Program-made: the position numbers and the translations under genes
IMG/VR virus record: IMGVR_UViG_2534681657_000006
Length of the DNA: 4,506 nucleotides
Direction: 5' to 3' (one strand)
From: a virus
Taxonomy: Duplodnaviria; Heunggongvirae; Uroviricota; Caudoviricetes
Part shown: positions 1 to 4,506 of the stretch, one piece after another
Position numbering within the stretch: the first letter of the stretch is position 1
Layout of the letters: the number at the start of each line of letters is the position of its first letter
The notes under the pieces: generated by a model
Told to the model about the DNA's origin: nothing
Database searches by the model: none
What the model saw: the letters and a program-made list of their open reading frames with translations, nothing else

Positions 1-224
1 ATGTGCTGCTGTGCTGTTTTGGTTCATCGGTGCCGAATCATGCCGCCATTTACTGCGGCGACGGTGAGCTGCTGCACCATATTCCTGAACAACTGAGTAA
101 ACGAGAGAGGTATACCGACAAATGGCAGCGACGCACACACTCCCTCTGGCGTCACCGGGCATGGCACGCATCTGCCTTTACGGGGATTTACAACGATTTG
201 GCCGCCGCATCGACCTTCGTGTGA
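1..224 (+). CDS. K: Tail assembly protein K, C-terminal part (5' end lies outside the window; first full codon at 3, stop TGA 222-224)
   Basis: Open frame runs from the window edge to TGA at 222-224. The translation (...AAIYCGDGELLHHIPEQLSKRERYTDKWQRRTHSLWRHRAWHASAFTGIYNDLAAASTFV) matches my recollection of the C-terminus of lambda gpK, and the gene sits immediately upstream of and overlapping gene I as in lambda. The M at position 3 in the ORF track is a GTG internal codon, not a real start. Confidence 0.8.
   Translation, partial: VLLCCFGSSVPNHAAIYCGDGELLHHIPEQLSKRERYTDKWQRRTHSLWRHRAWHASAFTGIYNDLAAASTFV
103..110 (+). promoter_or_regulatory. Putative Shine-Dalgarno for gene I (GAGAGAGG), 11 nt upstream of the ATG at 122
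   Basis: Purine-rich GAGAGAGG at 103-110 inside the 3' end of K, followed by ATG at 122. The spacer is on the long side. Confidence 0.4.
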
Positions 225-769
225 AAACGGGGTCTGAAGCCATCCGGGCGCTGGCCATGCAGATCCCGGCGTTTCGTCAGAAACTGAATGACGGCTGGTA
301 TCAGGTGCGCATTGCCGGGCGTGATGCAGGTGAAACCGAATTGTCTGCCCGTCTTAATGAGCCGCTGGCAAATGGTGCCGTGATCCACATCGTGCCGCGT
401 CTGGCGGGAGCTAAAAGTGGCGGTGTGTTTCAGGTGGTGCTGGGGGCGGCGCTGATTGCGGTGGCATGGTGGAACCCTGTGGGCTGGCTGGGTGCCGCGG
501 CTGTATCGGGCATGTATGCGGCAGGGGCCAGTATGATCCTGGGCGGAGTGGCGCAGATGCTGGCACCGAAAGCCAGGACGTCCACGGCAGCAAGTACAGA
601 TAACGGCAAACAGAACACCTATTTCTCCTCACTGGATAACATGGTTGCCCAGGGCAATGTTCTGCCTGTTCTGTACGGTGAAATGCGCGTGGGGTCACGC
701 GTGGTTTCTCAGGAGATCAGCACGGCAGACGAAGGGGATGGTGGTCAGGTTGTGGTGATTGGTCGCTGA
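122..769 (+). CDS. I: Tail assembly protein I (215 aa)
   Basis: Complete ORF ATG 122 to TGA 767-769. N-terminus MAATHTLPLASPGMARICLYGDLQRFGRRIDLRVKTGSEAIRALA and C-terminus DNGKQNTYFSSLDNMVAQGNVLPVLYGEMRVGSRVVSQEISTADEGDGGQVVVIGR match my recollection of lambda gpI. It has a central Gly/Ala-rich hydrophobic segment. The start lies inside the 3' end of K in a different frame (103-nt overlap), as in lambda. Confidence 0.9.
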   Translation: MAATHTLPLASPGMARICLYGDLQRFGRRIDLRVKTGSEAIRALAMQIPAFRQKLNDGWYQVRIAGRDAGETELSARLNEPLANGAVIHIVPRLAGAKSGGVFQVVLGAALIAVAWWNPVGWLGAAAVSGMYAAGASMILGGVAQMLAPKARTSTAASTDNGKQNTYFSSLDNMVAQGNVLPVLYGEMRVGSRVVSQEISTADEGDGGQVVVIGR

Positions 770-787
770 TGCAAAATGTTTTATGTG

Positions 788-815
788 AAACCGCCTCCGG
801 GCGGTTTTGTCGTTT
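788..815 (+). terminator. I-J intergenic GC-rich hairpin with interrupted T-tract (possible weak terminator, attenuator or RNA-stability element)
   Basis: AAACCGCC (788-795) and GGCGGTTT (800-807) are exact reverse complements around the loop TCCG, followed by TTTTGTCGTTT. The T-tract is interrupted, so this is not a canonical strong terminator. Confidence 0.3.
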
Positions 816-817
816 AT

Positions 818-821
818 GGAG
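818..821 (+). promoter_or_regulatory. Shine-Dalgarno for J (GGAG), 8 nt upstream of the ATG at 830
   Basis: GGAG at 818-821 with ATG at 830-832; spacing is typical. Confidence 0.6.
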
Positions 822-829
822 CATGACGA

Positions 830-1900
830 ATGGGTAAAGGCAGCAGTAAGGGGCATACCCCGCGCGAAGCAAAGGACAACCTGAAGTCCACGCAGTTGCT
901 GAGTGTGATCGATGCCATCAGCGAAGGGCCGGTTGAAGGTCCGGTGGATGGATTAAAAAGCGTGCTGCTGAACAGTACACCGGTGCTGGACAGTGAGGGG
1001 AATACCAACATCTCCGGTGTCACGGTGGTGTTCCGGGCAGGTGAGCAGGAGCAGACACCGCCGGAGGGATTTGAATCCTCCGGCTCCGAGACGGTGCTGG
1101 GTACGGAAGTGAAATATGACACGCCGATCACCCGGACCATCACGTCGGCAAACATCGACCGTCTGCGCTTTACCTTCGGTGTGCAGGCACTGGTGGAAAC
1201 CACCTCAAAGGGGGACAGGAATCCGTCGGAAGTCCGCCTGCTGGTTCAGATACAACGTAACGGTGGCTGGGTGACGGAAAAAGACATCACCATTAAGGGC
1301 AAAACCACTTCACAGTATCTGGCCTCGGTGGTGGTGGATAACCTGCCGCCGCGCCCGTTTAATATCCGGATGCGCAGGATGACGCCGGACAGCACCACAG
1401 ACCAGCTGCAGAACAAAACGCTCTGGTCGTCATACACCGAAATTATCGATGTGAAACAGTGCTACCCGAACACGGCACTGGTCGGCGTGCAGGTGGACTC
1501 GGAGCAGTTCGGCAGCCAGCAGGTGAGCCGTAATTATCATCTGCGCGGGCGTATTCTGCAGGTGCCGTCGAACTATAACCCGCAGACGCGGCAATACAGC
1601 GGTATCTGGGACGGAACGTTTAAGCCAGCATACAGCAACAACATGGCCTGGTGTCTGTGGGATATGCTGACCCATCCGCGCTACGGCATGGGGAAACGTC
1701 TTGGTGCGGTGGATGTGGATAAATGGGCGCTGTATCTTATCGGCCAGTACTGCGACCAGTCAGTGCCGGACGGCTTTGGCGGCACGGAGCCGCGCATCAC
1801 CTGTAATGCCTGGCTGACCACCAGCGTAAGGCGTGGGATGTGCTCAGTGATTTCTGCTCTGCGATGCGCTGTATGCCGGTATGGAACGGGCAGACGCTGA
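830..1900 (+). CDS. J: J segment 1 (frame 2); J-like translation ends near 1822, and the last 25 codons before the stop at 1900 are out-of-frame readthrough
   Basis: ORF-track ORF with an SD-supported ATG. The J-like sequence is read through ...RITCNAWLTT, then becomes SVRRGMCSVISALRCAVCRYGTGRR. Confidence 0.6.
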   Translation: MGKGSSKGHTPREAKDNLKSTQLLSVIDAISEGPVEGPVDGLKSVLLNSTPVLDSEGNTNISGVTVVFRAGEQEQTPPEGFESSGSETVLGTEVKYDTPITRTITSANIDRLRFTFGVQALVETTSKGDRNPSEVRLLVQIQRNGGWVTEKDITIKGKTTSQYLASVVVDNLPPRPFNIRMRRMTPDSTTDQLQNKTLWSSYTEIIDVKQCYPNTALVGVQVDSEQFGSQQVSRNYHLRGRILQVPSNYNPQTRQYSGIWDGTFKPAYSNNMAWCLWDMLTHPRYGMGKRLGAVDVDKWALYLIGQYCDQSVPDGFGGTEPRITCNAWLTTSVRRGMCSVISALRCAVCRYGTGRR

Positions 1901-2454
1901 CGTTCGTGCAGGACCGACCGTCGGATAAGGTGTGGACCTATAACCGCAGTAATGTGGTGATGCCGGATGATGGTGCGCCGTTCCGCTACAGCTTCAGCGC
2001 CCTGAAGGACCGCCATAATGCCGTTGAGGTGAACTGGATTGACCCGAATAACGGCTGGGAGACGGCGACAGAGCTTGTTGAAGATACGCAGGCCATTGCC
2101 CGTTACGGTCGTAACGTCACGAAGATGGATGCCTTTGGCTGTACCAGCCGGGGGCAGGCACACCGCGCCGGGCTGTGGCTGATTAAAACGGAACTGCTGG
2201 AAACGCAGACCGTGGACTTCAGCGTGGGTGCTGAAGGGCTTCGCCATGTACCGGGCGATGTCATTGAAATCTGCGATGATGACTATGCCGGTATCCGCAC
2301 CGGTGGGCGCGTGCTGGCGGTGAACAGCCAGACCCGGACGCTGACGCTCGACCGTGAAATCACGCTGCCATCCTCCGGTACCACGCTGATAAGCCTGGTT
2401 GACGGAAGTGGAATCCGGTCAGCGTGGAGGTTCAGTCCGTCACCGACGGCGTGA
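1840..2454 (+). CDS. J: J segment 2 (frame 1); J-like reading extends upstream to about 1822 (QRKAWD precedes the nominal GTG at 1840) and ends near 2412
   Basis: The frame 1 translation QRKAWDVLSDFCSAMRCMPVWNGQTLTFVQDRPSDK... continues the J protein with no SD or start of its own. The nominal start is an internal GTG. Confidence 0.55.
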   Translation: MLSDFCSAMRCMPVWNGQTLTFVQDRPSDKVWTYNRSNVVMPDDGAPFRYSFSALKDRHNAVEVNWIDPNNGWETATELVEDTQAIARYGRNVTKMDAFGCTSRGQAHRAGLWLIKTELLETQTVDFSVGAEGLRHVPGDVIEICDDDYAGIRTGGRVLAVNSQTRTLTLDREITLPSSGTTLISLVDGSGIRSAWRFSPSPTA

Positions 2455-2666
2455 AGGTGAAAGTGAGCCGTGTTCCTGACGGCGTTGCTGAATACAGCGT
2501 GTGGGGGCTGAAGCTGCCGACGCTGCGCCAGCGCCTGTTCCGCTGCGTGAGTATCCGTGAGAACGACGACGGCACGTATGCCATCACCGCCGTGCAGCAT
2601 GTACCGGAAAAAGAGCCATCGTGGATAACGGGGCGCACTTTGACGGCGACCAGAGCGGCACGGTGA
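2424..2666 (+). CDS. J: J segment 3 (frame 3); J-like reading from about 2412 (NPVSVEVQ...) to about 2615
   Basis: Frame 3 encodes [68 protein letters not shown], continuous with the J sequence. The nominal start is an internal GTG. Confidence 0.55.
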
Positions 2667-4306
2667 ATGGTGTCACGCCGCCAGCGGTGCAGCACCTGAC
2701 CGCCGAAGTCACCGCAGACAGCGGGGAGTATCAGGTGCTGGCGCGCTGGGACACGCCGAAGGTGGTGAAGGGCGTGAGCTTCATGCTTCGCCTGACCGTG
2801 GCAGCGGATGACGGCAGTGAGCGGCTGGTCAGCACGGCCCGGACGGCGGAAACCACATACCGCTTCACACAACTGGCGCTGGGGAACTACAGGCTGACAG
2901 TCCGGGCAGTAAATGCGTGGGGGCAGCAGGGCGATCCGGCATCGGTATCGTTCCGGATTGCCGCACCGGCAGCGCCGTCGCAGATTGAGCTGACACCGGG
3001 GTATTTTCAGATAACCGCCACGCCGCATCTTGCGGTTTATGATCCGACGGTACAGTTTGAGTTCTGGTTCTCGGAAAAGCGGATTGCGGATATCAGGCAG
3101 GTTGAAACCGCAGCCCGCTATCTTGGCTCGGCGCTGTACTGGATAGCTGCCAGTATCAATATCAAACCGGGCCATGATTATTATTTTTACGTTCGCAGTG
3201 TGAACACCGTTGGCAAATCGGCATTCGTGGAGGCTGTTGGTCAGCCGAGTGATGACGCATCCGGCTATCTGGATTTTTTCAAAGGCGAGATAGGGAAAAC
3301 CCATCTGGCTCAGGAGCTGTGGACGCAGATTGATAACGGTCAGCTTGCGCCTGACCTGGCTGAAATCAGGACGTCCATTACGGATGTCAGCAATGAAATC
3401 ACGCAGACCGTCAATAAGAAACTGGAAGACCAGAGTGCGGCAATTCAGCAGATACAGAAGGTTCAGGTTGATACAAATAATAACCTGAACAGCATGTGGG
3501 CTGTGAAGCTGCAGCAGATGCAGGACGGACGCCTTTATATCGCGGGTATTGGTGCCGGTATTGAGAACACCCCTGACGGCATGCAGAGTCAGGTGCTGCT
3601 GGCGGCAGACAGGATTGCGATGATTAATCCTGCGAATGGCAACACAAAGCCGATGTTTGTTGGGCAGGGCGATCAGATATTCATGAACGACGTGTTCCTG
3701 AAACGCCTGACGGCTCCCACCATTACCAGCGGCGGTAATCCTCCGGTATTTTCCCTGACACCGGACGGGTGGCTGACGGCGAAAAATGCCGATATCAGCG
3801 GTAACGTGAATGCGAACTCCGGGACGCTCAACAACGTCACGATTAACGAGAACTGTCGGGTTCTGGGAAAACTGTCCGCCAACCAGATTGAAGGCGATCT
3901 CGTTAAAACAGTGGGCAAAGCTTTCCCCCGGGACTCCCGTGCACCGGAACGGTGGCCATCAGGGACCATCACCGTCAGGGTTTATGACGATCAGCCGTTT
4001 GACCGGCAGATTGTTATTCCGGCGGTGGCATTCAGCGGCGCTAAACATGAGAGGGAGAATAACGATATTTATTCGTCATGCCGCCTGATAGTACGGAAAA
4101 ACGGTGCTGAAATTTATAACCGTACCGCGCTGGATAATACGCTGATTTACAGTGGTGTTATTGATATGCCAGCTGGTCGCGGCCACATGACGCTGGAGTT
4201 TTCGGTGTCATCATGGCTGGTAAATGACTGGTATCCCACAGCAAGTATCAGCGATTTGCTGGTTGTGGTGATGAAGAAAGCCACCGCAGGCATCAGTATC
4301 AGCTGA
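2621..4306 (+). CDS. J: J segment 4 (frame 2, same frame as segment 1); J-like reading from about 2615 ([11 protein letters not shown]...) to stop at 4306; contains FN3-like repeats and the distal putative receptor-binding region
   Basis: Longest uninterrupted ORF (561 aa). Two segments, [63 protein letters not shown] and [26 protein letters not shown]...[23 protein letters not shown], look like fibronectin-type-III-like beta-sandwich repeats as reported for J-type central fibres. The nominal start is an internal GTG. Confidence 0.6.
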
Positions 4307-4325
4307 ATTTTATAACCCATATACG

Positions 4326-4352
4326 GGCGCCAGAAATGGCGCCTTTTTTATT
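4326..4352 (+). terminator. Rho-independent terminator downstream of J
   Basis: Perfect 7-bp GC-rich stem GGCGCCA (4326-4332) and TGGCGCC (4337-4343) around a GAAA tetraloop, immediately followed by TTTTTTATT (4344-4352). It starts 20 nt after the J stop. Confidence 0.7.
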
Positions 4353-4362
4353 GCAGAAAAGC

Positions 4363-4368
4363 GAGAGG
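4363..4368 (+). promoter_or_regulatory. Shine-Dalgarno for lom-like gene (GAGAGG), 5 nt upstream of the ATG at 4374
   Basis: GAGAGG at 4363-4368 with ATG at 4374-4376. Confidence 0.55.
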
Positions 4369-4373
4369 TAATT

Positions 4374-4506
4374 ATGCGTAAAGTTTGTGCAGCCATTTTG
4401 TCCGCAGCCATCTGTCTGGCCGTATCCGGTGCGCCTGCATGGGCGTCTGAGCAGCAGGCCACACTGAGCGCAGGGTATCTTCATGCCCGTACGAACGCTC
4501 CCGGCA
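4374..4506 (+). CDS. lom: Lom-like outer-membrane protein (Ail/Lom/PagC family), N-terminal part with signal peptide; 3' end lies outside the window
   Basis: ATG 4374 with SD, open to the window end. The translation MRKVCAAILSAAICLAVSGAPAWA|SEQQATLSAGYLHARTNAPG has a classic Sec signal peptide (basic n-region, hydrophobic core, A-W-A cleavage motif). Position directly downstream of J behind its own terminator is the lambda lom position. Only 44 codons are visible, so family assignment rests mostly on synteny. Confidence 0.7.
   Translation, partial: MRKVCAAILSAAICLAVSGAPAWASEQQATLSAGYLHARTNAPG

Follow-up and report, generated by a model that had tools for sequence, protein, structure and literature searches.

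Three single-base gaps in a lambda-type J gene of Escherichia coli 2860650: a probable consensus artefact over co-assembled prophage copies

The tip attachment protein J of phage lambda (gpJ; TipJ family; PDB 8iyk, 8k35, 8xcg) is a protein of 1132 amino acids (aa), expected to be encoded in a single uninterrupted frame, and its gene lies in the order K-I-J-lom-stf. Two other kinds of described case resemble the locus considered here. Mixed read pileups over collapsed repeats cause consensus errors which give rise to spurious frameshift pseudogenes in draft and long-read assemblies, and short stand-alone contigs from multi-copy regions are typical products of repeat-limited assembly. In addition, gpJ genes annotated as "frameshifted" occur in complete genomes of E. 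coli, e.g. those of strains 04-00955 and MS7163. The stretch of DNA analysed here, hereafter the window, is 4,506 bp long (IMG/VR record IMGVR_UViG_2534681657_000006, Caudoviricetes) and corresponds in its entirety to one complete contig, APXG01000018.1, of the draft assembly GCA_000356445.2 of E. coli 2860650. It carries genes in the order K'-I-J-lom', with J interrupted as deposited by three gaps of a single nucleotide (nt) each. Comparison with homologous loci, with paralogous copies within one genome and with other assemblies of the same deposit batch indicates that these gaps are very probably a deletion-only consensus artefact over co-assembled J paralogues, and not the marks of a real pseudogene.

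As judged from its sequence, J of the window is an ordinary lambda-type tail-tip gene. Its repaired product of 1159 aa contains the full domain set of lambda gpJ, i.e. six GpJ Pfam domains, all with scores above the gathering threshold (FNIII-A_GpJ, Phage-tail_3, Ig_J, Ig_J_second, Phage_Tail_Tip and Ig_GpJ_C), which are divided among four fragments in the deposited sequence. It matches the solved lambda gpJ (8iyk_J) with E = 0 and 2182 bits, residues 1-835 of the query aligning with residues 1-835 of the chain, and its C-terminal domain matches 8xcj and 9wca. The lambda order K-I-J-lom-stf is also that of the homologous loci of enterotoxigenic E. coli (ETEC) 602354 (L001), E. coli GE3 (L002) and phage vB_EcoS-640R1 (L003), and the full order in homologous loci is L-K-I-J-lom-stf.

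Global alignment with the intact J genes of these same three loci showed that the window lacks a single nucleotide at exactly three sites, following positions 1821, 2411 and 2614; J is otherwise free of insertions and deletions. The gene is thereby split over four open reading frames (ORFs), at 830-1900 (frame 2), 1840-2454 (frame 1), 2424-2666 (frame 3) and 2621-4306 (frame 2). In a panel of 83 homologous loci aligned with the window using MAFFT, the base at each gap column is present in all 83, and no further column of J lacks a base in the window alone. The three gaps are thus real features of the deposited sequence. A preliminary description of this DNA had read J in frames 2, 1, 3 and 2, with switches near 1822, 2412 and 2615 each due to loss of one base, and had recognised the gene as lambda-type J; both points are borne out. 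It had also held that only about 331 N-terminal residues would be translated, which agrees with a first deletion in codon 331 and a predicted product of about 330 J residues followed by 26 out-of-frame residues. The return to the original frame through a net change of -3, claimed in the same description, holds as arithmetic only: stop codons follow the shifts, at 1900, 2454 and 2666, so translation is not rescued. When the three bases are re-inserted, an uninterrupted ORF of 1159 codons is obtained, with only 7 of 1159 residues differing from J of ETEC 602354.

The position of the gaps is more informative than their number. All three columns are third-codon, synonymous positions with a minor-allele frequency of at least 0.19 among the 83 homologues, a level reached by only 9-10% of J columns, with a background of 9-14%. 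For three 1-nt deletions at random, a probability of about 8e-4 is obtained for all of them hitting columns of this kind with exact placement, and of 0.003-0.015 when any placement within a homopolymer is counted. Homopolymers, to which the preliminary description attributed possible sequencing or assembly errors, play no evident part, with runs of 1, 1 and 2 bases in the intact reference at gaps 1, 2 and 3, respectively. The bases proposed there as missing (C, A and G) were likewise not those found in the panel, which shows G/A, C/T/G and G/A. Placement on columns that vary between paralogues points to a consensus formed over slightly different copies, since neither real mutations nor random read errors would have reason to pick such columns. 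A genuine pseudogene would be expected to carry its lesions without regard to polymorphism between copies; here, three of three fall on variant columns.

Several copies of the region per genome are common in this species: matches were obtained in 4,674 of the 5,426 complete E. coli genomes, the median number of places being 3. The closest complete genome is that of ETEC 602354, which has at least three J copies. One of them, gpJ of the prophage at 3.896 Mb (NZ_CP025847.1, WP_095908817.1; L001), is intact, unlike J of the window, and belongs to a locus whose nucleotide identity to the window, taken over its full length, is 98.4%; the others surfaced through the searches with junction sequences described below. 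On NZ_CP025847.1 the three copies occupy 3896316-3899795, 3441052-3444549 and 4378866-4382261. At gaps 1, 2 and 3 the three copies read G/A/A, C/G/T and G/G/A, respectively, i.e. they vary at each. The window and L001 differ at 67 nucleotides, all within 1-2836; at 63 of these, the window carries an allele of the two remaining J copies of ETEC 602354. Two regimes can be distinguished. Between 3001 and 4506 the window follows L001 without a mismatch, and the other two copies are only 50-98% identical per 250-bp bin. Between 750 and 3000 the copies of ETEC 602354 are 96-99% alike, and the copy best matching the window keeps switching: with 23 donor switches, none of the 2,251 positions is left unexplained by the three copies, and the 43 mismatches to L001 in this zone are without exception (43/43) alleles present in the other two. 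The corresponding figure for the closest real sequences is only 74-87% (Fisher p = 9e-4). All three gaps fall within this mixed zone. Two nonsynonymous differences, T at 1710 and C at 1736 (A294V and V303L), were initially candidates for private substitutions of the window, as they are absent from the 83 panel loci. This was rejected, since both are present in the L086 copy of ETEC 602354, and the two differences are real alleles of one J lineage and not errors.

The same kind of damage recurs in the batch of assemblies to which the window belongs. The exact protein I of the window is also encoded on contig AQAB01000066.1 of E. coli P0302293.3 (GCA_000356805.2; L088), in which gene K has suffered five 1-nt deletions within 70 bp (L088 9925-9995, equivalent to window 46-113, about 760-830 bp from the contig end). 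An alignment free of mismatches is obtained with the deletions at window columns 47, 56, 59, 63 and 113, all five of which are polymorphic in the panel. The broken K gene of this strain has been called as a 203-aa "hypothetical protein" (ENE19211.1), the usual length being 247 aa. Scans of IMG/VR for exact junctions yielded further contigs carrying junctions of the window, four of which aligned well (L094, L095, L096 and L098; Table 1). Two of these come from E. coli p0305293.4 and P0302293.10, strains which share with that of the window an accession series (ENB/ENE/ENG) and a naming family. Taken together, the four contigs show 135 deletion runs and 0 insertions. Several columns were hit repeatedly across assemblies, namely 2617 four times and 2413, 2050, 2233, 2569 and 1975 three times each. 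The column of gap 2 is also deleted in L095 and L096, and that of gap 3 in L094, L098 and the J gene of 04-00955 (L085). Dozens of deletions on synonymous variant sites without a single insertion represent not gene decay but a systematic consensus artefact, of which the window is a mild case.

Two other records are noted separately. The J gene of IMGVR_UViG_2537561689_000021 (L062) has three single-T indels at window-equivalent positions 3181, 3273 and 4170 (a TT pair shortened to T at a conserved column, a T6 run lengthened to T7, and a T inserted between CC and AG), a signature unlike that of the window. A contig of E. coli 3431 (L097) matched the pattern of junction 3; as its J is only about 80% identical and poorly aligned, it is set aside.

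Searches for the lesions in independent genomes used junction-centred queries of 60 nt against the 5,426 complete E. coli genomes. No full-length exact match to junctions 1 or 2 was found among them. Junction 3 was matched once, in strain 04-00955, which has a gpJ annotated as "frameshifted". In a look-up covering about 15 billion proteins, none of the four fragment proteins of the window turned up on any other contig. The sharing of lesions with related genomes that would be expected of a genuine pseudogene is therefore absent among the complete genomes, save for junction 3 in the unrelated assembly of 04-00955, where it is private in its turn. In J of the latter (L085, NZ_CP035498.1, 4453776-4457253), 100% of the aligned positions agree with J of strain VG38-53E1, which is intact, and the only differences are two 1-nt deletions, each of them on a variant column. 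Common descent of junction 3 in the window and in 04-00955 was considered and rejected: the identical stretch spans only 244 bp, with wide divergence outside it, and the deletion is absent from VG38-53E1. On these grounds, the two are treated as independent occurrences.

A similar signature is evident in strain MS7163, sequenced with PacBio (PMC6106082) and with reads deposited as SRR6727962. Its J (L092, NZ_CP026853.1, 5031333-5034809) is annotated "frameshifted" and has three 1-nt deletions that can be placed on variant columns; the neighbouring tail-fibre gene is likewise flagged as frameshifted. In both of these strains the lesions are, as in the window, 1-nt deletions only, and one shares the column of gap 3; unlike the window, they come from finished genomes and from different laboratories. 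Across the window, P0302293.3, 04-00955 and MS7163, all 13 of 13 deletions can be placed on variant columns (P about 4e-8), although one of the 13 is not independent, as 04-00955 was found via junction 3. The pseudogene calls in 04-00955 and MS7163 may represent artefacts of consensus or polishing.

The following course of events would account for these observations. Strain 2860650 would, like related ETEC strains, contain several lambdoid prophages, with J genes 96-99% identical over their first two-thirds and divergent at the receptor-binding end. Reads or sub-assemblies of the near-identical copies would have been piled into one consensus during draft assembly, with one allele emitted at most copy-variable positions and no base emitted at three of them, leaving three 1-nt gaps. 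The deposited J would then be a chimera matching no single copy, and the real J copies of strain 2860650 are most likely intact. As to the exact step at which the assembler dropped a base, we infer a consensus lacking a base at three mixed columns; a possible route would be the setting of two alleles in separate, half-occupied alignment columns. Of what such a process predicts, the sequence comparisons bear out errors on columns that vary between copies, a mix of alleles where the copies are alike and a single copy where they diverge, and recurrence within the batch. The window thus resembles known collapsed-repeat errors in being a short multi-copy contig with lesions only at differences between copies, in showing deletions only, and in the recurrence of the damage across the batch.

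Several points weigh against this explanation. When the window was parsed greedily as a mosaic of panel sequences, 31 segments were needed in 1-2868, against 16-32 for real J genes with equally distant donors. The three copies of ETEC 602354 also explain the J locus of strain GE3 almost as well as they explain the window. Natural mosaicism of lambdoid J genes is thus fine-grained too, and for this reason the patchwork in 750-3000 is supportive but not decisive. The presence of several J copies in strain 2860650 itself is deduced from related genomes, which make it very probable. Only 3 of the 127 donor-informative columns in 750-3000 were dropped, and in this small proportion of affected variable columns (3 of about 127) the window differs from collapsed-repeat errors as otherwise known. 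Finally, a literature search on the assembly accession and strain names gave no sequencing platform or assembler for the batch.

These points have to be set against those bearing on other explanations. The preliminary description had offered, as one of two possibilities, very recent mutations in a single prophage whose J would just have lost its function, with translation stopping near residue 331 and no adsorbing particles made. In favour of this, the gaps are present in the deposited sequence, complete genomes such as those of 04-00955 and MS7163 do include gpJ genes annotated as frameshifted pseudogenes, and the rest of J is undamaged, as expected for very recent lesions. We nevertheless consider it unlikely. 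It requires three independent deletions outside homopolymers, all on common synonymous variant columns (P about 1e-3 to 1e-2), with no accompanying private substitution, given that not a single position in 750-3000 is unexplained. None of the complete genomes searched contains junction 1 or 2, and the J of the only one containing junction 3 is elsewhere 100% identical to that of another strain, in which the gene is intact. Furthermore, contigs of the same batch show deletion-only damage of the same type, with up to 58 deletion runs per J, which is impossible as biological decay. The claim of a newly inactivated J in a non-infectious prophage is thus not sustained. The other possibility offered, sequencing or assembly errors at homopolymers, is strongly supported as regards an assembly error and fails as regards the sites, which are paralogue-variable columns and not homopolymer runs. 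Ordinary read-level error unrelated to paralogy, whether from miscalled homopolymers or from random indels where coverage is low, would suit a draft assembly, and T-run type indels do occur in J of the draft contig L062. It is very unlikely, however, as the three gaps are all outside runs of at least three identical bases, random errors would not cluster on variant columns, and they would include insertions, of which the batch has none against 135 deletion runs.

An alternative that shares more with the artefact is that the deletions are real and arose at heteroduplex mismatches during recombination between diverged J copies of co-resident prophages, with mismatches occasionally resolved as 1-nt deletions. 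Such a process would also put lesions on paralogue-variable columns, and would also leave a sequence composed only of alleles of co-resident copies. If true, it would be a previously undescribed mutational process, in which gene conversion between prophages inactivates tail genes where the copies differ, and it would likewise account for gpJ being frameshifted in the finished genomes of 04-00955 and MS7163. We regard it as extremely unlikely, for the 39-58 deletion runs per gene, in sister colonies from one sample series (P0302293.3 against P0302293.10), are accounted for much better by a pipeline artefact, the lesions show no inheritance, and we know of no heteroduplex mismatch mechanism with deletion-only outcomes. 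As for programmed ribosomal frameshifting, or some other recoding through the three junctions, the continuation of the J sequence in another frame past each junction is all that speaks for it. Three +1 events would be required, at columns that are plain synonymous polymorphisms elsewhere. The base is present at all three in every one of the 83 homologues, those complete across J can be read past these columns without changing frame, and L062, the sole other frame-broken panel member complete across J, is broken at different sites. Recoding is effectively refuted by these single-frame homologues, and its probability is next to negligible. A consensus artefact over co-assembled paralogues is thus the explanation retained here.

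The features of the window are listed in Table 1, together with the deletion runs in four other contigs. The start of gene I differs among relatives (L001, L003, L085, L086), giving either a protein of 215 aa from about 100 nt inside K or one of 182-190 aa from the K stop. An antisense ORF of 290 aa (window 2432-3304, minus strand) lies inside the most GC-rich stretch of J (63-65% GC) and is most likely a by-product of composition.

Table 1. Features of the 4,506-bp window and deletion runs in J of four other contigs. Positions are those of the window, or reference positions for the four contigs; p values are binomial, for enrichment of single-base deletions on variant columns; CDS: coding sequence.
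Feature	Positions	Strand	Details
Gap 1	1821..1822	+	Third base of codon 331 (Thr ACG/ACA); context ACCAC[G/A]CAGC; panel G16/A67
Gap 2	2411..2412	+	Third base of codon 528 (Gly GGC/GGT/GGG); context GTGG[C/T/G]AATCC; panel C51/T15/G16/A1
Gap 3	2614..2615	+	Third base of codon 596 (Glu GAG/GAA); context AAAAAGA[G/A]GCC; panel G46/A37
Zone of 96-99% alike co-resident J copies; contig is an allele patchwork from several copies	750..3000	+	Comparison with ETEC 602354 copies
Copy-specific 3' part (J receptor-binding end, J-lom spacer, lom start); error-free	3001..4506	+	100% identity to L001
K 3' end (tail-tip assembly, C40 peptidase family)	1..224	+	ORF 3-224; aligns with end of annotated K / C40 family peptidase CDS in L001-L003; truncated by contig start
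I (tail assembly), intact, 215 aa	122..769	+	ORF; Pfam PF06805 Lambda_tail_I; identical protein on 6 contigs
J (lambda-type tail-tip attachment)	830..4306	+	3477 nt as deposited; 3480 nt / 1159 codons after restoring three bases
lom 5' end (Ail/Lom outer-membrane protein)	4374..4506	+	Called gene with PF06316 Ail_Lom; annotated Lom after J in L001-L003; truncated by contig end
J of L094 (E. coli p0305293.4)	830-3000		39 deletion runs, 0 insertions; p = 1e-16
J of L096 (E. coli P0302293.10)	830-3000		58 deletion runs, 0 insertions; p = 3.5e-18
J of L098	830-3000		27 deletion runs, 0 insertions; p = 7e-9
J of L095	830-3000		11 deletion runs, 0 insertions; p = 0.06

The feature described here is not novel biology, and its value is that of a data-quality flag. 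Since the gaps are almost certainly assembly errors, nothing can be concluded from them as to inducibility; the frameshifts say nothing on J function, inducibility or infectivity of the E. coli 2860650 prophage. The draft batch comprising strains 2860650, P0302293.3, P0302293.10 and p0305293.4 contains deletion-only consensus errors where co-resident prophage copies differ, and spurious fragment proteins derived from such errors are now part of NCBI nr (ENB03682.1, ENB03684.1, ENB03685.1, ENE19211.1, ENE26302.1, ENG74402.1). Pseudogene counts, calls of prophage completeness and protein clustering are biased when such assemblies are included. The like signature in two finished genomes suggests that some of the "frameshifted" gpJ calls in RefSeq deserve a check at the level of reads.

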